In this document: in pieces, positions 1 to 8,480 of the stretch
How positions within the stretch are numbered: position 1 is the stretch's first letter
Layout: the number at the start of each line of letters is the position of its first letter
Source of the DNA: a virus
Lineage: Duplodnaviria; Heunggongvirae; Uroviricota; Caudoviricetes
IMG/VR virus record: IMGVR_UViG_648276668_000009
Span: 1-8,480 of that record
Reading direction: 5' to 3' (one strand)
DNA length: 8,480 bases
The notes under the pieces: generated by a model
What the model saw: the letters and a program-made list of their open reading frames with translations, nothing else
Told to the model about the DNA's origin: nothing
Databases searched by the model: none
Position numbers and translations under genes: made by a program

Positions 1-56
1 ACACCGTTTCGTTACCGGACAGTGCGATCCCGCCAGGCTTCAGGGGGTAACTGACC

Positions 57-803
57 ATGAAAAATATTGCGACAGGCGGCGTTCTTGAACGTATCCGCAG
101 ACTGGCTCCGTCACATGTAACCGCGCCATTCAAGACGGTGGCGGAGTGGCGTGAGTGGCAACTTTCCGAAGGCCAGAAACGTTGTGAGGAGATCAACCGT
201 CAGAATCGTCAGTTGCGGGTGGAAAAAATTCTGAATCGCTCTGGCATCCAGCCATTGCACCGCAAATGCTCGTTTTCGAATTACCAGGTGCAGAACGACG
301 GTCAGCGATACGCGTTGAGCCAGGCGAAATTCATCGCCGATGAACTGATGGTCGGGTGTACAAATTTTGCGTTCAGTGGAAAACCTGGTACCGGAAAAAA
401 CCATCTGGCGGCGGCTATCGGGAATCGCCTGCTGAAAGACGGTCAGACAGTGATTGTGGTTACCGTGGCTGATGTTATGAGCGCCCTGCACGCCAGCTAT
501 GACGACGGGCAGTCAGGCGAAAAATTTTTGCGGGAACTGTGCGAAGTTGATCTGCTGGTTCTTGATGAAATTGGTATTCAGCGCGAGACGAAAAACGAGC
601 AGGTGGTACTGCACCAGATTGTTGATCGCCGGACAGCGTCGATGCGCGGCGTGGGAATGCTGACAAACCTGAACTATGAGGCCATGAAAACATTGCTCGG
701 CGCGCGGATTATGGATCGCATGACCATGAACGGCGGACGCTGGGTGAATTTTAACTGGGAGAGCTGGCGTCCGAATGTCGTCCAGCCAGGAATTGCGAAG
801 TAA
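57..803 (+). CDS. ydaV: DnaC-like replicative helicase loader (IstB-like AAA+ ATPase), phage replication protein
   Basis: Seen: 248-aa ORF, ATG at 57 preceded by GGGGG (44-48). Walker A '[15 protein letters not shown]' and Walker B 'DLLVLDEIG' in DnaC/IstB arrangement. From memory it closely resembles Rac prophage YdaV; the symbol is recalled, not verified. Confidence 0.85.
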
Positions 804-825
804 TTTTTACCGGGAGAAAAATTTA

Positions 826-1587
826 ATGGAGACTGTTTTTGACGCACTGAAAGCAATGGGAATAGCCACATCCATAGAACTTGCTGCGCGACTTGATATC
901 AGTCGTGAAGAAGTGCTGAACGAACTATGGGAACTGAAAAAGGCTGGTTTTGTTGATAAAAGCGCGTACACCTGGCGTGTGGCTGATAACAACGTTCAGC
1001 AGGAACAGCCAGCGCAGGCAGAACTGCCGGAAGAAACCACCACAGCAACAGTAGCGAAAATCTCAGAGTGCGATTTAACCGCGACGATTGAACAACGCGG
1101 ACCACAAACGGCTGATGAGCTGGCTACATTGTTTGGTACCACATCACGCAAAGTGGCTTCAACGCTGGCAATGGCAATCAGCAAAGGTCGTCTGATTCGC
1201 GTAAATCAGGGCGGTAAATTTCGTTACTGCATACCGGGCGATAATTTACCAGCAGAGCCGAAAGCAGCATCGGTAGCGGAAACTGATGGTAAGGCCTTTC
1301 CTCAGACCGCAGGTGTCGCGTTACCAGTACAGGAGGCTGCAACACAGGAAGAAATTAAAACAGATACTATGGGGGACATTGTGCAGTCACTACCATCGTT
1401 CACTGAAACGCGAGCCAATGACCTGATTTTACCATCGCTGCATATGGCAAACCGCGAACTGCGCCGGGCGAAAAGTCATGTCCAGAAGTGGGAGCGAGTC
1501 TGCGCCGCGCTGCGTGAGCTGAACAAGCACCAGGATATTGTTCGACAGATTACGGATTCTTACCGCCGTGTTGCATCGGAAAAGTGA
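826..1587 (+). CDS. Prophage DNA-binding protein with two tandem winged-helix-like repeats (DUF1627-like, YdaW-like position)
   Basis: Seen: ORF track frame 775-1587; I prefer ATG at 826 (METVF...) because GGAGA at 813-817 sits 8 nt upstream and 775-825 overlaps the preceding gene. Two similar segments, '[32 protein letters not shown]' and '[33 protein letters not shown]', suggest duplicated wHTH domains. Family assignment is from memory. Confidence 0.6.
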
Positions 1588-1602
1588 TTGCCGGAGGCGC
1601 TT

Positions 1603-2025
1603 ATGGCAAAAGTATTTACACAAGAAGAGCGGGAAAAAATTAAAGGGCAGGTGGTTGAACTCGTGCGCCAGAGCGGTCGTGAGATGTTACGGCAACTGGA
1701 AGCTAAAACAGGCGCGACAAGATATCTGATGAGTGTTCTCGCCAGAGAGCTGGTTGCCAGTGGCGATGTATATAACTCCGGCTACGGGTTATTCCCGTCA
1801 GAACAGGCTCGTAAGGATTGGCAAAATGCCCGCAAAAAACTATCCAGGGCAAAGGTGAAGAAACCATCTGTGGTTGATCCTGACCTTATCTGGTCATTAC
1901 CTGACGGAGAAATACGTCGCTACGACAGGAGTATGAACATAATCTGTCACGAGTGCCGGAAGAGTGAAGTTATGCAGCGTGTATTAGCATTTTATCAGGG
2001 AAATGTTCGGTATTTATTGAAGTGA
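1603..2025 (+). CDS. Hypothetical prophage protein (about 140 aa), function unknown
   Basis: Seen: ORF frame 1588-2025; ATG at 1603 preferred, with GGAGG at 1593-1597 and a 5-nt spacer, just after the upstream stop at 1585-1587. Basic C-terminal half with a CxxC motif. E. coli-like codon usage and GC. Confidence 0.55.
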   Translation: MAKVFTQEEREKIKGQVVELVRQSGREMLRQLEAKTGATRYLMSVLARELVASGDVYNSGYGLFPSEQARKDWQNARKKLSRAKVKKPSVVDPDLIWSLPDGEIRRYDRSMNIICHECRKSEVMQRVLAFYQGNVRYLLK

Positions 2026-2243
2026 TGATATTAGAGTGGATCAGTTCATATGAGAATTGACATTTCTGCGTCATAGAGTGAACCACTAGTGGGGCTATTA
2101 GTTTTATCCCTCAAGCCGAAGTTGAAAATCTGACCATACGTTTATCTTAAGAAAGTATTTCACCTCTAATCGCCAACCAAAAATCTTGTTAAATTTCGCG
2201 CCGTTTAGAGGTGAGGTTAATAGATTTTGATTACCTGACCACC

Positions 2244-3122
2244 CTAGAGTGTAGATATAAAACGTTGATAGTGCCTAAGCACCTTAGAAGACATAAATAA
2301 ATTTGGGTTAGTCATGAAGCAAGTCATGGCAATATTTTTTAATGCATTAAAATCAATATTGCTCTTGGCATTAGAGTGTTTTTTGCTCATTGTGAGTGTT
2401 AATTTAAGCACTAAATACTCCAAAAAATGGCCCTGGATTATAGAGAAACTTTCGAACTTGTTATTTTTGATATAATCAATTGCTTCCTCCTTGGTCACTA
2501 TTCCATTAGCTTTTTGCACTAAACGTTCAAATTCTATTTTGGAAATGCAGTGTGGGAGTGATGTATCAACATTGATTCCAAGTTTTCCTCCTTTGTCCGA
2601 TATCTTAAATAAAAAACTTCCTTTTTTTAACATCAATATGTTAAGCTTATAAAGTAGTGATAATCTTCTTACACTTTTGCGAAGTGTTTTTATCAAATCA
2701 TCATTCGCGGAAGCATTATTCATTGTAAGTAATGAAATCAAGTGCACACATAATTTTTTGCTCCAGAAATCATTTTCCCAACTGTATCCTTTAGTGAAAA
2801 AAATATTTCTAGAATTAATTCTATTTCCAAGTATATCTACATAGTCCCTGTCGACAATAACAAATTGATTACCTATGTTTTCAGCGACTATTTTGTCATG
2901 GTAATTAAGAGCATCTCTTTTGCTTCCTGCAATGTTAATTTTTACTTTTTTGCTAGAAAAAATATTAAACAGCGTTCTATAGAACTTTATGTCGTAGAGA
3001 TCATTATCTGGAGTGGCCGCTTCAGTTAAATCACTCACTTTCCCCTCAATGTAAATGATTAGATCTACATCATGGAAATGATGAATGGATGACAAACCAC
3101 TATTAGTCCTTGTAAAGGTCAT
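2244..3122 (-). CDS. TOPRIM/DUF4435-like nuclease effector, candidate AriB-like partner
   Basis: Seen: 292-aa ORF, ATG at 3120-3122 overlapping the upstream stop; GAGGA SD inside the upstream gene's 3' end. N-terminal '..DLIIYIEGKVSD..' (Glu26) and 'FVIVDRDY' (D91-x-D93) fit a TOPRIM Glu + DxD signature. Size, order and coupling to the ATPase match AriA-AriB as I recall it. Confidence 0.7.
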   Translation of the reverse strand: MTFTRTNSGLSSIHHFHDVDLIIYIEGKVSDLTEAATPDNDLYDIKFYRTLFNIFSSKKVKINIAGSKRDALNYHDKIVAENIGNQFVIVDRDYVDILGNRINSRNIFFTKGYSWENDFWSKKLCVHLISLLTMNNASANDDLIKTLRKSVRRLSLLYKLNILMLKKGSFLFKISDKGGKLGINVDTSLPHCISKIEFERLVQKANGIVTKEEAIDYIKNNKFESFSIIQGHFLEYLVLKLTLTMSKKHSNAKSNIDFNALKNIAMTCFMTNPNLFMSSKVLRHYQRFISTL

Positions 3123-4402
3123 TTGAGAAATTCCTCTATTTTTATAAGGTATTCTTGTCTTTTTCCTACAATATCAGGAGAGTGTGTTGCAAATATTATT
3201 TGGGCATTTGGGTTTATTTTTGATATTGATTCTATTAGCCCCTCTTGCCAGTTTACATGAAGAGATAACTCTGGTTCATCTGCTATGTAGATTGTATGAT
3301 GCATCTCTTGTAATAAAGCCTCGCCAAGTATTATTATCATTTGTTTCTCGCCGGATGAAAGGTCTTTTAAAACAACAGATCTCCCATCACGATTTCTTAT
3401 TGATAGTTCATTCTCTTCAGAAACAAAAAAGGTTTTCCTTCCATCAAATAATGTGTTTAGCAATTCAATAAAGTTATCTCTCGGACTGAATATTACTAAT
3501 TTGCTGTTCTGTAATGAACCATATGCACTTACCAACTCATGAGCTCTAATAGAATTAAATAAGACCATGAATTCATCAAAGGAAAGTTCTTCACTGGAAT
3601 CTCTTTTTTTGAGTATGTGCTCAACTCTTTGATAGAGTTCGTTTATTTTTCTGTCATATCTACGCTTTTCTAAGCCTAAAGTTCTAAATACATCACTTAA
3701 AGTTGACTTATCTTCATCAACATTTATTGCTATTGAATTGGTCGGCGAAATGCCTTTATTATCAATGACCGATAAAAAAACGTTTTTTTGAAAATCAATT
3801 GTTTGCTCTGCAAACCTTTGGTCTAGTAAAGAAAAATAGCGAACCATCTTGTTGTTTAATTCAAAAAGCTTAACATCGATAAGCGAGTTGTTTTTGTAGT
3901 TGCCTGCGTTATCATTTGAGAAATTATCTGCTCTGTGGACTGATAGCCACGATAGTTTAAACATTTCTGAAAATATTACATTCAATTCTCTAGAATGCAA
4001 TATATGATTTTTTATATACAGTTTTTTTTCATCGTCGTAATATCTACGAGGAGATTTATTGAACGAGTCGTGAAAAAAATATTCTGCTGGGCTTTGATCT
4101 GTAGTGCTTTTTTTTATAATGTACTTTATGACATTATTACTAATGTCCACTCCTTGTTTGTATACTTCAATTATAGGTTTTTTATTCTTCCCAACTTCTT
4201 TCATTACAATTCTAGCTGAAATGAAATCAATTCTATCTATTTTCTCTATATCACACATTAAAATAGCGGATATGAGGTCAATAATAGTTGTTTTGCCTGT
4301 ACCATTGACACCTATGATGAAATTGAAGTTTTCATTTACTTTAATATTAACATCCTTTTTTCCCCAAAGCCCCTGGATAGCAATGCTGCTGACTATGTTC
4401 AC
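3119..4402 (-). CDS. ABC/OLD-family ATPase, candidate AriA-like sensor of a PARIS-like anti-phage system
   Basis: Seen: 427-aa ORF with GTG start at 4402 and AGGA SD (rc of 4410-4413) 7 nt upstream. N-terminal Walker A 'GVNGTGKT' (aa 31-38); C-terminal ABC-signature-like 'LSSGEKQ', Walker B 'IYIADEPE' and H-loop-like 'ATHSP'. Strongly AT-rich relative to flanks. Stop overlaps the next gene's start by 4 bp (ATGA). Confidence 0.8.
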   Translation of the reverse strand: MNIVSSIAIQGLWGKKDVNIKVNENFNFIIGVNGTGKTTIIDLISAILMCDIEKIDRIDFISARIVMKEVGKNKKPIIEVYKQGVDISNNVIKYIIKKSTTDQSPAEYFFHDSFNKSPRRYYDDEKKLYIKNHILHSRELNVIFSEMFKLSWLSVHRADNFSNDNAGNYKNNSLIDVKLFELNNKMVRYFSLLDQRFAEQTIDFQKNVFLSVIDNKGISPTNSIAINVDEDKSTLSDVFRTLGLEKRRYDRKINELYQRVEHILKKRDSSEELSFDEFMVLFNSIRAHELVSAYGSLQNSKLVIFSPRDNFIELLNTLFDGRKTFFVSEENELSIRNRDGRSVVLKDLSSGEKQMIIILGEALLQEMHHTIYIADEPELSLHVNWQEGLIESISKINPNAQIIFATHSPDIVGKRQEYLIKIEEFLK

Positions 4403-4893
4403 ATTATTTTCCTTGTTTTATAAATGCAGTGATGAATGTGATTTATTCATTTTCGGTTTGAGACTTTTATCAGTTGCATAATTTAAACAATAAACAATAA
4501 CTTTACAAGCACTTAACATAATTTGGTGGAAATATTAGGCGGTTAGATTTCAATTAACAATTAACCTGACGGTAACATCATGATATTGTTGACTTTTGGA
4601 GGTGGGGGGTATCAGAGGCCTGTCTATCTCATTGCTCCATTATAATCAAACGTTTGTTAGTTAGATCGTTATCTACTTTTGCTCATCACTCAAAGCGGAT
4701 TGTCAAAGCTAAATGCACACTGCCTACACAAAGTGTTGGCTTGCGTCTGACTTAGCGTCTTTAAAGAAGTGCTGGTGGTGACGGGTTGTTGTGTCCCATT
4801 TCCACAGAAAAATCAGAGAAACTATAGCGGCTGTAATGGCAATTTATTGTCTTGCTGTTGTTCTTATGGACCGCCTTTCTGATTGATTTCATA

Positions 4894-4922
4894 TTGGCGA
4901 GGTAACGGGAGTTAAGTAGAAT
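4894..4922 (+). promoter_or_regulatory. Candidate hok/mok mRNA promoter (-35 TTGGCG, 17-bp spacer, -10 TAGAAT)
   Basis: Seen: TTGGCG at 4894-4899 and TAGAAT at 4917-4922. Predicted transcript start near 4930 ('GGTGCTTGAGGCTGTCTGCCTC') resembles the 5' end of plasmid R1 hok mRNA as I remember it. Confidence 0.35.
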
Positions 4923-4984
4923 GGCTGCGGGTGCTTGAGGCTGTCTGCCTCGGGCATGAACACCAAAGGCAGATAGAGAAAAGC

Positions 4985-5049
4985 CCCAGTTAACATTATG
5001 CGTCCTGCAAGACGCTTAACATTAATCTGAGGCCACATCTATGCTTTGC
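4985..5049 (-). ncRNA. sok: Candidate Sok-like antisense RNA (antitoxin) covering the mok start region
   Basis: Inferred from the minus-strand promoter at 5056-5085 and analogy to R1 sok (about 64 nt, antisense to the mok translation initiation region). The 3' end is approximate. Confidence 0.4.
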
Positions 5050-5247
5050 ATACGTAGATTAGCCTCTTACGGACCGAAAGGTCAAGGAGAAGCAGGCTAT
5101 GAAGCAGCAAAAGGCGATGTTAATCGCCTTGATCGTCATCTGTTTAACCGTCATAGTGACGGCACTGGTAACGAGGAAAGACCTCTGCGAGGTACGAATC
5201 CGAACCGGCCAGACGGAGGTCGCTGTCTTCGTAGACTACGAATCTAG
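5041..5247 (+). CDS. mok: mok-like overlapping reading frame (modulator of hok translation)
   Basis: Seen: 68-codon ORF starting 58 nt upstream of hok, overlapping it in another frame and ending just before the hok stop. This is the mok/hok arrangement of R1-type loci. Functional translation not provable from sequence. Confidence 0.4.
   Translation: MLCIRRLASYGPKGQGEAGYEAAKGDVNRLDRHLFNRHSDGTGNEERPLRGTNPNRPDGGRCLRRLRI
5056..5085 (-). promoter_or_regulatory. Candidate Psok promoter (minus strand: -35 TTGACC, 18-bp spacer, -10 TAATCT)
   Basis: Seen: rc of 5080-5085 is TTGACC and rc of 5056-5061 is TAATCT. It points leftward across the mok start codon at 5041, as the R1 sok promoter does. Confidence 0.4.
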
Positions 5248-5254
5248 AGAGTAA
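5099..5254 (+). CDS. hok: Hok/Gef-family membrane toxin (type I toxin), HokD/RelF-like
   Basis: Seen: 51-codon ORF, hand-translated as MKQQKAMLIALIVICLTVIVTALVTRKDLCEVRIRTGQTEVAVFVDYESRE, stop TAA at 5252-5254. Hydrophobic N-terminal transmembrane segment and conserved 'RKxLCEV/IR' core typical of Hok. Absent from the ORF track only because it is short. Confidence 0.85.
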   Translation: MKQQKAMLIALIVICLTVIVTALVTRKDLCEVRIRTGQTEVAVFVDYESRE

Positions 5255-5263
5255 GAGTGACCA

Positions 5264-5285
5264 GGCGAGGGATTTCTCCCTCGCC
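5264..5285 (+). promoter_or_regulatory. Stable hairpin in hok 3' UTR (9-bp stem GGCGAGGGA / TCCCTCGCC, loop TTTC), possible fbi-like fold-back element
   Basis: Seen: perfect 9-bp inverted repeat at 5264-5272 and 5277-5285, just after the hok stop. R1-type hok mRNAs carry a 3' fold-back inhibitory element. Confidence 0.4.
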
Positions 5286-5326
5286 ACCTCTGATGAGTCA
5301 GGCATCCTCAATGTACCCACACTTAA

Positions 5327-5349
5327 CCCGCTTCGGCGGGTATATTTTA
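5327..5349 (+). terminator. Rho-independent terminator of hok mRNA
   Basis: Seen: CCCGC-TTCG-GCGGG hairpin (5327-5340) followed by the T-rich run TATATTTTAT. Confidence 0.55.
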
Positions 5350-5722
5350 TCTGTGAATATTTTTATAAAAATAATGCCCACGCACAGCATAAAACAAAAA
5401 GTATTACAGATAAAAAAGGAACGTAATGTGCAGATTTGTTGTTTTCCATATTTACTCACCTTAATATGATTAACACTGATAGGGTTGTTATTTCAGCGGT
5501 TTTCAAATGAGATATTATGGTGATCTGACAAATTTGCATAACATTAAAATTTAATTTGTTTAACCGCTTTTAATAATAAGCGTTGTTTGTATCCCAGCAA
5601 TCTGTTGTTTGGTTTTTATTCCATTAAGGTGGGGGCTTTACACTGGAACCAGTTTATTTATACTTTATACGTCAGCCTGAACAACTGGCATCTGCTGCAC
5701 TGCGCCATCGAGAGATTGAGAA

Positions 5723-6322
5723 ATGGCGCATATACAACTGGTCAAACAAACTTCTTCTGGTTTACTTCTCCCGGCGACGCCGGAGAGTTGCGATTTTCTG
5801 CATCAAATCAAAATAGGTGAGTGGATACACGCAGACTTTAAGCGTGTGCGTAACTACGCATTCCACAAGCGTTTTTTCAAACTCCTGCAACTGGGATTCG
5901 ATTACTGGACTCCGGTCGGTGGGGCGATCACGCCTCGCGAACGAGAACTGCTGTCTGGTTTCGTTGATTACCTGTGCGAATCAGTTGGTCGGGAACACAC
6001 GCCAGCCCTGAGTGATGCCGCAGAGCAATATCTGAATACAGTTGCGACACGCAGAACCCGGGATACGGCATTGCTAAAGTCGTTTGAGACTTTTCGCGAG
6101 TGGGTAACCATTCAGGCTGGATTTTACACCGAACATTTTTATCCGGACGGTAGCCATGGGCGTCGGGCGAAATCCATCGCTTTTGCGAATATGGACGAAA
6201 CCGAGTTTCAGCAGGTTTATAAATCTGTTCTGAATGTGCTGTGGAACTGGATTCTGTTCCGTAAATTTTCCTCTCCGGAACAAGTCGAAAATGTAACCGC
6301 GCAGCTGCTGGAGTTTGCGTAA
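5723..6322 (+). CDS. DUF1367-like prophage nin-region protein (199 aa)
   Basis: Seen: ORF with ATG at 5723 preceded by a GAGA-rich stretch. Its stop overlaps the next start by 1 nt (TAATG at 6319-6324). Sits directly upstream of a YbcO-like gene as in lambdoid nin regions. Family name is from memory. Confidence 0.7.
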   Translation: MAHIQLVKQTSSGLLLPATPESCDFLHQIKIGEWIHADFKRVRNYAFHKRFFKLLQLGFDYWTPVGGAITPRERELLSGFVDYLCESVGREHTPALSDAAEQYLNTVATRRTRDTALLKSFETFREWVTIQAGFYTEHFYPDGSHGRRAKSIAFANMDETEFQQVYKSVLNVLWNWILFRKFSSPEQVENVTAQLLEFA

Positions 6323-6612
6323 TGGTGGATTTACGTAAAGCGGCGCGGGGGCAGATGTGCACCGTCAGAATTCCTGGCTACTGCAATCACGATCCGGAAA
6401 CGTCTGTGCTGGCGCATTACCGACTGGCGGGAACGTGCGGAATAGCGACAAAACCACACGATATGCAGGCGGCGATTGCCTGTAGCTCATGCCACGATCT
6501 AATCGACGGGCGGGTAAAAACCAGCGATTACACCAAAGAAGAATTACGCCTGATGCATGCAGAAGGTGTTTTTCGCACACAAGAAATCTGGAGAAAGGAG
6601 GGATATTTGTGA
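6322..6612 (+). CDS. YbcO-like DUF1364 protein (putative Zn-binding nuclease of lambdoid nin region)
   Basis: Seen: 96-aa ORF 'MVDLRKAARGQMCTVRIPGYCNHDPETSVLAHYRLAGTCGIATKPHDMQAAIACSSCHDLIDGR...' with Cys/His spacing typical of a Zn site. From memory it closely resembles DLP12 YbcO. Confidence 0.8.
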   Translation: MVDLRKAARGQMCTVRIPGYCNHDPETSVLAHYRLAGTCGIATKPHDMQAAIACSSCHDLIDGRVKTSDYTKEELRLMHAEGVFRTQEIWRKEGYL

Positions 6613-7151
6613 TTTACCCAACGAATACAGGAAAAAGCGGAGAACACCTTCGTCTCGCCACGCTGGAAAGTGTCTGGATTCAGGGCAAACTGCGTATGTG
6701 GGGGCGCTGGTCGTATATTGGCGGTGGCAGGTCAGGAAATATGTTCAATCAGTTGTTGGCATCCCAAAAATTGACGAAAACAGCCATCAATGAAGCCCTG
6801 CGCAGAATGAAAAAAGCGGGAATAGAGAAAGCTGAGCTGGAAGCGTTTTTGAGAGAGATGATCAACGGCAAGCAAAAGAGCTGGCTGGCGCATTGTACTG
6901 ATGCAGAGGCGTTATGTATTGATCGAGTCATAAGTGAGGTGCTGGCAGAGCATCCAGGATTGATTTGCATTCTCCGGCAACGCTATGAAGGGCGGGGGAT
7001 GACTAAGCGTAAAATGGCTGAATTGCTACATGATGCACACCCAGAGTGGTGTTTTAGCACATGCGAAAAACGGATTGCTAATTGGTTAGCTGTTGCTGAG
7101 TATGTCCTATATATTCCCATGCGTGAATCATTTGCTGAGAAAATGGCTTGA
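6609..7151 (+). CDS. Putative late-gene antiterminator (Q-like)
   Basis: Seen: GTG at 6609-6611 overlapping the YbcO-like TGA stop (GTGA) with a strong AGGAGG SD at 6595-6600. This start is preferred over the in-frame ATG at 6489, which lies inside the upstream gene. Function is inferred mainly from synteny (hok, DUF1367/DUF1364, then Q, as in Qin), not from a recognised motif. Confidence 0.5.
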   Translation: MIYPTNTGKSGEHLRLATLESVWIQGKLRMWGRWSYIGGGRSGNMFNQLLASQKLTKTAINEALRRMKKAGIEKAELEAFLREMINGKQKSWLAHCTDAEALCIDRVISEVLAEHPGLICILRQRYEGRGMTKRKMAELLHDAHPEWCFSTCEKRIANWLAVAEYVLYIPMRESFAEKMA

Positions 7152-7182
7152 TTTCTTACGTATAAACTGCTTCAATTTCGCT

Positions 7183-7186
7183 ATGC
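7183..7186. repeat. Left copy of 4-bp direct repeat (ATGC) flanking the IS, putative target-site duplication
   Basis: Seen: ATGC immediately left of the IS end (7183-7186) and ATGC immediately right of it (8436-8439). Confidence 0.5.
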
Positions 7187-7194
7187 TGAAGTGG

Positions 7195-8363
<1,169 letters not shown>

Positions 8364-8435
8364 TGGAGCACCTGTGTTGTTCTGAGGTGAGCATATCACC
8401 TCTGTTCAGGTGGCCAAATTCAGTGTGCCACTTCA

Positions 8436-8439
8436 ATGC
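8436..8439. repeat. Right copy of 4-bp direct repeat (ATGC) flanking the IS
   Basis: Seen: see left copy. Confidence 0.5.
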
Positions 8440-8480
8440 TTCGCAAAGCTGTATCGCGAGGCGAACAATCCCACGGATAC

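Follow-up and report, generated by a model that had tools for sequence, protein, structure and literature searches.

The stretch of DNA analysed here (the window, that is, 8,480 nucleotides corresponding to positions 1 to 8,480 of IMG/VR virus record IMGVR_UViG_648276668_000009) carries two adjacent minus-strand genes: an ariA-like gene (3119–4402) that encodes a 427-aa, 49.5-kDa ABC/Rad50-type ATPase from a GTG start, followed by an ariB-like gene (2244–3122) that encodes a 292-aa, 33.6-kDa DUF4435-type TOPRIM nuclease with a pI of 9.5. The genes share four nucleotides, ATGA, in which the ATG of the second gene (3122–3120) overlaps the TGA of the first (3121–3119), and the open reading frames confirm the coupled pair that an earlier note, made from the letters of the sequence, had described. 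Each gene is preceded by a Shine–Dalgarno sequence (AAGGA, 7 nt upstream of the GTG, and GAGGA, 9 nt upstream of the ATG). The GTG corrects an ATG start for the 427-aa gene and is also the start assigned by PGAP. Given two long open reading frames in DNA of 32% GC, many homologues and a retained architecture, the two-gene cassette is not a product of chance.

On the basis of blastn comparison between copies and GC content (0.32 in the cassette and 0.51 and 0.46, that is, around 50%, in the flanking prophage genes), the portable unit spans 2135–4678 (as a unit it was given no strand) and comprises a promoter region, both genes and, 3′ of them, a hairpin. Scans for consensus promoters and for terminators around the cassette returned nothing convincing, and both elements were derived from cross-copy conservation and folding. 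A block at 4480–4508 on the minus strand (TTGTAA at 4508–4503, a 17-nt spacer and TAAATT at 4485–4480) is kept in all three cassette copies compared and weakly suggests a sigma-70 promoter; it matches the consensus at 8 of 12 positions, which is under the threshold of the consensus scanner, and the scanner did not list it. On the same strand, 30–84 nt 3′ of the ariB-like stop codon, an inverted repeat with 13-nt arms (2160–2214) folds as RNA with a dG of −20.6 kcal/mol (z = −3.9; none of 200 shuffles was equally stable), and the Pantoea copy described below preserves the stem by changes on both sides (CTCTAA/TTAGAG to CTCTAG/CTAGAG). We regard this hairpin as the probable transcription terminator of the cassette, although its U-tract is weak and the site was not called by the terminator scanner. 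No direct or inverted repeats bordering the cassette were found at its flanks.

The motifs that the earlier note had listed were all recovered in place in both proteins. In the 427-aa protein these are a Walker A (GVNGTGKT, residues 31–38, with K37), an ABC signature (LSSGEKQ, 348–354), a Walker B (IYIADEPE, 371–378, with D375/E376) and an H-loop (ATHSP, 405–409, with H407), and a D-loop (SLH) is found at 380–382; K37, the signature, D375/E376 and H407 are invariant across 67 homologues, and homologues of this protein number in the thousands. Both AAA_21 (60.1 bits) and AAA_15 (58.7 bits) match above their Pfam cut-offs, alongside SMC_N/RecF-type similarity, and the top defence model is PADLOC AriA (PDLC04164; 134.4 bits, E = 1.2e-39). 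A phmmer search of the PDB likewise ranked AriA first (8ux9_B, E = 1.2e-14), and a Foldseek search with the AF2 model (pLDDT 83.8) returned AriA chains as its first 15 PDB matches (E = 7e-19 to 1e-13; TM 0.57–0.69 for the best 14). The protein is an AAA_15/AAA_21 ABC ATPase for which AriA is the closest match among both models and solved structures, which upholds the OLD/ABC-type assignment proposed earlier; its predicted AriA fold and its intact ATPase site are together what is expected of a PARIS ATPase. At the sequence level the likeness to AriA of Escherichia coli B185 is confined to one part of the protein: the alignment spans just ~125 C-terminal residues, and when the ATPase family was compared by hhalign with the first 399 residues of B185 AriA, the C-terminal lobe alone aligned. 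The Walker B E376 aligns with B185 AriA E393, mutation of which abolishes ATP hydrolysis. A loop at 114–120, predicted to be disordered, contains K116, R119 and R120 and has an Arg-rich family consensus; because the alignment is limited to the C-terminal lobe, we claim no equivalence between these residues and the pore residues R116/R119 of B185 AriA.

The 292-aa protein, which carries IIYIEG (22–27, with E26) and VDRD (90–93, with D91 and D93), matched nothing in Pfam (DUF4435, PF14491, was absent even at E values up to 10) or in NCBIfam. The PADLOC AriB model (PDLC02983) matched it at 45.9 bits (E = 1.8e-12), and the same model gave 34.7 bits for B185 AriB and 56 bits for the AriB of E. coli O42; the 292-aa protein thus outscores the validated B185 AriB on this profile. 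Foldseek with its AF2 model (pLDDT 83.5, pTM 0.81) aligned AriB over the full length (8ux9_A and 8v46_D; E = 1.5e-6, probability 1.00, TM 0.45–0.51) as the sole PDB match with E < 0.001, the next being an OLD TOPRIM at E = 0.36. The structural comparison with AriA and AriB that the earlier note had suggested thus placed AriA chains at the top for the ATPase and AriB as the only significant match for its partner. By this match the protein has the predicted fold of AriB, in which an N-terminal TOPRIM domain precedes a helical DUF4435 dimerization region; given the moderate TM, the relative orientation of the domains may differ from that in AriB.

Simple sequence searches of the PDB (phmmer and a 7-sequence profile) did not detect AriB; what they returned, a CBS domain and a glucosidase, was noise. 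A 143-sequence family profile found AriB as its sole, weak match (E = 0.02), aligning GYSWEN (E116) with GHSLEN (E122), and hhalign connected the family to B185 AriB (E = 2.6e-5; D91/D93 on D88/E90 and K68 on K64) and to O42 AriB (E = 2.2e-4 across ~90 columns). Among 143 diverse representatives, E26, D44, D91 and E116 show no variation, with D93 conserved at 90% or more. These five residues correspond to the two-metal acidic set of the B185 AriB TOPRIM domain (E26, D30, D88, E90 and E122), in which E26A abolishes defence; K68 corresponds to B185 AriB K64, an anticodon-loop ‘tweezer’ lysine that is required for defence. Two features set the protein apart: an N-terminal peptide, MTFTRTxSGL, that is conserved family-wide and predicted to be disordered, and an insertion of ~14 residues between E26 and D44.

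The missing PF14491 match reflects the sensitivity of that model at the edge of the DUF4435 family, to whose periphery the protein belongs. PF14491 is matched by 92 of the 143 family representatives (best E = 5e-16) and by two of seven close relatives, an 80%-identical copy has a precomputed PF14491 match on record, and the PGAP product name is ‘DUF4435 domain-containing’. The earlier TOPRIM/DUF4435 assignment is therefore sustained by the AriB model, the fold, the acidic residues and these relatives and lacks a Pfam match of the protein’s own; in the same way, the HMM searches that had been proposed returned AAA_15/AAA_21 and the PADLOC AriA and AriB models, and Pfam DUF4435 failed to appear for the 292-aa protein. 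The family is also not small: a word-indexed homologue search retrieved only seven nuclease relatives and had suggested rarity, an impression dispelled by an exhaustive HMM search that yielded 967 cluster representatives (~970 clusters at 50% identity).

The cassette is cargo of a Rac-like (lambdoid) E. coli prophage, as the earlier description of a prophage moron had implied. It lies antisense in a variable slot that runs from a DUF977 gene to hokD, adjoining the hok/sok addiction module; in 527 genomes this slot is occupied by queH, and in another strain by a methyltransferase cluster. The cassette was found in 2 of 5,426 genomes and its flanks in thousands. By blastn, an island of Pantoea stewartii matches window positions 2135–4678 at 85% nucleotide identity and a P2-like prophage matches 2252–4516 at 80%; the former adjoins smpB and has a D5-type primase gene, and the latter copy sits in a tail hotspot with a tail-fibre gene on one side and a sheath gene on the other. 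A unit of 2.3–2.5 kb thus hops among the lambdoid prophage, the P2-like tail hotspot and the Pantoea island, and the DUF977–hokD slot is a new travel site for a PARIS-type system. Searches of sequenced phage genomes by DNA and by protein did not find the cassette, and a plasmid search gave one distant copy only. Close relatives (ATPase 87–94% and partner 80–87% identical) have the same two-gene arrangement, and relatives with a 48%-identical ATPase have a 38%-identical partner and retain both the ATPase-then-partner order and the 4-bp overlap. Such a co-oriented, co-evolving pair of adjacent genes is what is expected of PARIS.

Taken together, the top AriA and AriB models, the folds and the catalytic residues identify the cassette as a member of a divergent clade of PARIS (AriA/AriB), that is, of a known family and not a new kind of system, and bear out the PARIS-like identity put forward earlier. 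We further consider it likely that the two genes form an abortive-infection defence system of the PARIS family (class 4 OLD-like), carried as Rac-like prophage cargo. The rule by which PARIS was originally recognized (Rousset et al. 2022) calls for an AAA_15 match of at least 32 bits or an AAA_21 match of at least 27 bits next to a DUF4435 (PF14491) match of at least 27 bits; the ATPase passes its half, and the rule fails on the cassette because the 292-aa protein has no DUF4435 match. Compared with PARIS-2 of E. coli B185 (AriA 464 aa, AriB 308 aa; PDB 8UX9 and 8V45–8V49), the cassette shares the order of ATPase then nuclease, carriage by a mobile element, AriA as the top fold match of the ATPase, AriB as the only significant PDB fold of the nuclease, and equivalents of E393 (E376), of the five TOPRIM acidic residues and of K64 (K68). 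It differs in that structural-alignment identity is only about 13–17% for the two proteins, the ATPase is shorter by 37 aa, with only its C-terminal lobe alignable by sequence, the nuclease has the insertion between its first Glu and Asp (14 residues) and the clade-specific N-terminal peptide, and the cassette is carried by a lambdoid Rac-like prophage rather than a P4 satellite. PARIS-1 of E. coli O42 (P4 satellite; Rousset et al. 2022), in which defence is visible only with artificial induction, is likewise a pair of an ATPase and a DUF4435 protein that has an AriB model in common with the cassette, yet it is distant (hhalign E = 2.2e-4 to O42 AriB). The earlier suggestion of a possibly divergent subtype is thus substantiated, with B185 AriB undetected by phmmer and the 7-sequence profile and a structural-alignment identity of ~13–15%.

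An origin in another family that pairs an ATPase with a nuclease, such as AbiL (AbiLi/AbiLii), RloAB, MADS3–4, Septu/PtuAB or an OLD/Gabija-type system, appears very improbable. Lactococcal AbiL, RloAB and MADS3–4 also combine an ABC ATPase with a separate TOPRIM-type nuclease, Septu and retron PtuA belong to the same ABC ATPase superfamily and rank second in both HMM and fold searches, and the 427-aa protein, through the shared AAA_15/AAA_21 domain, scores against PtuA (81 bits), mad3 (63.7 bits) and AbiLi (48.7 bits); AriA is far ahead of these at 134 bits, and its TM of 0.6–0.69 compares with ~0.4 for retron PtuA, the Foldseek runner-up (E = 6e-12). The partner is more discriminating still: it and 110 of its 143 relatives match only AriB or AriAB models, and no relative matches any other defence nuclease model. 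AbiL, which the earlier note had kept as an alternative, is not supported, given the lack of any AbiLii match in the 292-aa protein and all 143 relatives, and AbiLii and AriB are published as having no sequence similarity and superposing poorly. Septu is set aside because PtuA works with the HNH nuclease PtuB, whereas the partner here is TOPRIM/DUF4435 and has no HNH or PtuB match; a Pfam search of the relatives for RloB, DUF4276 and HNH found none, and the one further Pfam match beside DUF4435 was a single DUF3226. For MADS, mad4 is unmatched and the neighbourhood has no methyltransferase or other mad genes. The class 1 OLD and GajA proteins are fusions, unlike the two reading frames here, and no helicase gene is present in the window.

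A role outside defence, whether as a prophage module for housekeeping, recombination or repair or as a selfish addiction cassette of the toxin–antitoxin type, also seems improbable to us. The SMC_N/RecF-type similarity of the ATPase, the published description of PARIS as toxin–antitoxin-like and the neighbouring hok/sok module would fit such a role. Against it stand the rarity of the cassette relative to its widespread flanks (it is not a phage core function, since nearly all related Rac-like prophages lack it), its movement among unrelated mobile elements at cargo slots and the fact that its nearest characterized relatives are all defence proteins.

For the PARIS reading, four elements would follow from homology to B185 PARIS: a complex of the two proteins, what triggers it, which RNA is cut and a defence phenotype. 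In B185 PARIS, an AriA hexamer sequesters AriB and releases it upon binding of a DNA-mimic anti-restriction protein (for example, T7 Ocr), after which AriB cleaves the anticodon loop of tRNA (Lys/Thr/Asn). By analogy, an oligomer of the AriA-like ATPase may serve as a scaffold that keeps the AriB-like nuclease inactive until an early phage protein binds the scaffold and an ATP-dependent step frees the nuclease; the latter would dimerize through its helical C-terminal half and cut host tRNA anticodon loops with a two-metal site composed of E26, D44, D91, D93 and E116, and this cutting would stop translation and phage production. Cleavage at the anticodon loop is suggested indirectly, by one residue (K68, the equivalent of B185 K64). 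Published phylogeny divides AriA/AriB into 11 clades among which pore residues are poorly conserved and differing triggers have been proposed, so that Ocr cannot safely be transferred to the cassette as its trigger; in addition, the ATPase is 37 residues shorter than B185 AriA, and its trigger-binding insertions and pores may differ. The literature searched contained no experimental work on this clade.

We can also envision, more tentatively, that the cassette keeps the architecture and release logic of PARIS and differs in its input and output, responding to a phage product that is not a DNA-mimic anti-restriction protein and perhaps cutting different tRNAs or another nucleic acid, in which case it would be an ATPase–TOPRIM abortive-infection module that is PARIS in fold only. 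The confinement of ATPase similarity to the C-terminal lobe, the reported variability of pore residues by clade, the already differing defence profiles of O42 and B185 PARIS and the clade-specific peptide and insertion of the nuclease would agree with this; the conserved catalytic residues and ‘tweezer’ lysine speak against it, as does the basic loop of the ATPase (K116, R119 and R120), which would suit an acidic, DNA-mimic-like ligand. In a similar vein, and with the same reserve, the clade as a whole (~970 clusters, marked by the peptide, the insertion and the shorter ATPase) might differ from B185 PARIS in docking and release, in phage trigger and in the set of RNAs cut.

The cassette leaves the current understanding of PARIS unchanged and carries a lesson for annotation, that is, Pfam DUF4435 alone misses the 292-aa protein; since the original rule fails on it, members of this clade may be missing from censuses based on Pfam rules. 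As the clade is distant from both tested PARIS systems, it could help to separate the universal parts of PARIS, for which the ATPase site, the TOPRIM site and the anticodon-loop lysine are candidates, from the determinants of trigger and target.

The cassette comprises two translationally coupled minus-strand genes, an ATPase gene (427 aa; positions 3119–4402, GTG start) and a nuclease gene (292 aa; positions 2244–3122, ATG start), which overlap by four bases (ATGA) and are each preceded by a Shine–Dalgarno sequence (AAGGA, 7 nt from the ATPase start codon; GAGGA, 9 nt from that of the nuclease). This confirms what had been observed of the gene pair from the sequence alone, the sole correction being the GTG start of the first gene, and every motif listed at the time was found in place, that is, GVNGTGKT (residues 31–38), LSSGEKQ (348–354), IYIADEPE (371–378) and ATHSP (405–409) in the ATPase, and IIYIEG (22–27, with E26) and VDRD (90–93) in the nuclease. 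We regard a PARIS-type abortive-infection system (that is, an AriA ATPase with an AriB TOPRIM nuclease) as the best-supported reading of this cassette.

The assignment of the first gene in the earlier note to the AriA-like ABC ATPases (AAA_15/AAA_21) was borne out by Pfam (AAA_21, 60.1 bits; AAA_15, 58.7 bits; both above cut-offs), PADLOC (top model AriA, PDLC04164; 134.4 bits, E = 1.2e-39), PDB sequence (top match Escherichia coli B185 AriA, 8ux9_B; E = 1.2e-14) and Foldseek searches. The PDB sequence alignment spans essentially the C-terminal lobe alone (residues 300–423), as does that obtained with a profile of 67 homologues, and places Walker B residue E376 opposite E393 of B185 AriA, whose mutation kills ATP hydrolysis according to the published B185 PARIS work. 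When an AF2 model based on the 67 homologues (pLDDT 83.8, pTM 0.78) was compared with the PDB, the top 15 Foldseek matches were AriA chains (E = 7e-19 to 1e-13; TM 0.57–0.69 for the top 14), followed by retron PtuA (E = 6e-12, TM about 0.4). A loop predicted to be disordered (residues 114–120) carries K116, R119 and R120, and the family consensus at this place is rich in arginine, which fits an acidic ligand; the 67-homologue profile gave no alignment linking this loop to R116/R119 of B185.

For the partner, Pfam and NCBIfam scans of the 292-aa protein gave no match, nor did PDB searches by phmmer or with a 7-sequence profile, such that the proposal of a TOPRIM/DUF4435 nuclease found no support from Pfam DUF4435 on the exact protein and was upheld by the AriB model, the fold and the DUF4435 matches of its family. 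The PADLOC AriB model (PDLC02983) matched it at 45.9 bits (E = 1.8e-12); given that the AriB proteins of two experimentally validated systems (sequences from Table S2A, Rousset et al. 2022) scored 34.7 (B185) and 56 bits (O42), this generic profile fits the 292-aa protein better than it does the archetype B185 AriB. An exhaustive HMM search (E up to 1e-3) recovered 967 cluster representatives, nearly all of 285–305 aa, and among 143 full-length family representatives 92 matched Pfam DUF4435 and 110 AriB models; the exact sequence does not reach the original Pfam DUF4435 threshold for PARIS, which most of its family passes. The 143-sequence profile matched AriB alone in the PDB (E = 0.02; TyGYSWEN opposite TLGHSLEN), and hhalign related the family to B185 AriB (E = 2.6e-5) and O42 AriB (E = 2.2e-4). 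Foldseek searches of the PDB with an AF2 model (pLDDT 83.5, pTM 0.81) returned two significant matches, both AriB (8ux9_A and 8v46_D; E = 1.5e-6), aligned over the full length (TM 0.45–0.51, 13–15% identity); an OLD TOPRIM domain ranked third (E = 0.36).

The catalytic site is intact. In profile and hhalign alignments, the acidic residues of B185 AriB (E26, D30, D88, E90 and E122, with E26A abolishing defence in published work) map to E26, D44, D91, D93 and E116, of which D93 is at least 90% conserved and the others invariant across the 143 representatives. By hhalign, K68 lies opposite B185 K64, one of two lysines proposed to grip the anticodon loop and needed for defence (published). The evidence from AriB-specific models, from the fold and from the catalytic residues is in full agreement. 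Specific to this clade are an insertion of about 14 residues between E26 and D44 (low pLDDT), a conserved block (GYSWENDxW) and an N-terminal peptide, MTFTRTxSGL (residues 1–10; window 3093–3122, minus strand), which is conserved family-wide (F3, R5 and G9 at least 90% in the 143 diverse representatives) yet predicted to be disordered (pLDDT below 50 for residues 1–16). The peptide is absent from the B185 and O42 AriB sequences, and may serve to dock the nuclease on the ATPase.

An AbiL-like pair had been kept as an alternative, and the ATPase does match AbiLi, at 49 bits versus 134.4 for AriA; PtuA (81 bits) and mad3 (64 bits) also ranked below AriA. The partner decides against these readings: the AbiLii, mad4 and PtuB models were matched by none of the 143 representatives. 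AbiL, Septu, MADS and OLD/Gabija were rejected on partner identity or architecture. We class the pair as a member of PARIS, nearest to B185 PARIS-2 and more remote from O42 PARIS-1, and the suspicion of a divergent subtype proved correct, as its clade is distant from both tested systems; a literature search for experimental work on this clade found none.

A match to the cassette at 100% identity lies in the chromosomes of E. coli HYM1 and T-HYM1, isolated from ducks in China; among the 5,426 complete E. coli genomes searched, no others carry it. The matching region is a Rac-like prophage (intR, xisR, recET, kilR, sieB, racR and ydaSTUV) integrated beside ttcA, in which PGAP labels WP_001028550.1 as ‘AAA family ATPase’ and WP_000144745.1 as ‘DUF4435 domain-containing protein’. 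Placed antisense, the cassette separates replication-module genes (ydaV, DUF1627 and DUF977) from hokD with nin-like genes, and has a GC content of 32% (flanks, 51% and 46%). Between the DUF977 gene and hokD (window 2026–5098, compared with genomic loci L010 and L011), Rac-like prophages have a variable cargo slot, which is occupied by queH in 527 complete genomes of E. coli and by a cluster of a Dcm-type cytosine methyltransferase, an O-methyltransferase and an ATPase (ATP-binding protein) in strain ST2747; the view of the cassette as prophage cargo (a ‘moron’) thus holds.

Two further elements were observed in the window. A complete hok/mok/sok type I toxin–antitoxin module (4929–5254, plus strand) adjoins the cassette, with a Hok/Gef ORF (5099–5254; Pfam HOK_GEF, 81 bits), a mok-like ORF overlapping it (5041–5247) and a match to sok (4929–5101; Rfam, 104.9 bits). 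Just downstream of a DUF1133 (Q-like) gene lies an IS3-family insertion sequence (7195–8399, minus strand), in which orfA (8061–8399, HTH_Tnp_1) and orfB (7195–8034, rve integrase core) are in the usual frameshift arrangement. No CDS is annotated across this stretch in the RefSeq record.

Citrobacter, Klebsiella, E. coli and others encode ATPase homologues of 46–49% identity, each of them followed, with the identical 4-bp overlap, by a 298–302 aa partner that is 38% identical to the window nuclease and also matches AriB, a pattern that indicates co-evolution of the two proteins. In Citrobacter and E. coli, related systems about 48% identical (L002–L009, about 4127–4722) consistently have a small serine resolvase/invertase gene (185–191 aa) about 280 bp away and, in many cases, a phage-type integrase on the opposite side; the window’s own copy has no such resolvase/invertase gene.

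Closer copies occur in Pantoea stewartii, within a smpB-adjacent island that carries a D5-type (Pox_D5-type) primase gene (L012:6838–11643; 85% nucleotide identity over window 2135–4678) and in a P2-like prophage (L016:7707–10683; 80% over 2252–4516), where it separates the tail-fibre genes from the sheath gene, at what we take to be the P2 Z/fun cargo position. These identities point to recent transfer of the cassette between unrelated mobile elements, and the alignment extents define a portable unit of the two genes with about 115–275 bp upstream and about 110 bp downstream. An upstream TTGTAA-17-TAAATT block (4508–4480) is conserved in all three copies. A hairpin 3′ of the nuclease gene (2160–2214, minus strand; dG −20.6 kcal/mol, z −3.9) shows a long internal loop and a weak U-tract; its stem is preserved in the Pantoea copy through a two-sided change, and the hairpin may be a terminator or other structured 3′ element.

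Following the mechanism published for B185 PARIS, we infer an ATPase–nuclease complex, trigger, target and defence phenotype as follows: the ATPase oligomer would sequester the nuclease, a phage early protein would elicit its ATP-dependent release, and the freed nuclease dimer would cut tRNA anticodon loops, leading to translation arrest. Given that the ATPase aligns with B185 AriA in its C-terminal lobe alone and that the pores are poorly conserved between PARIS clades (published), the trigger may be other than Ocr. Existing tools would call the cassette PARIS, and its annotation already reads ATPase plus DUF4435 protein; its remaining value is comparative, for trigger and target specificity and the conserved N-terminal peptide, and it documents another prophage cargo slot.
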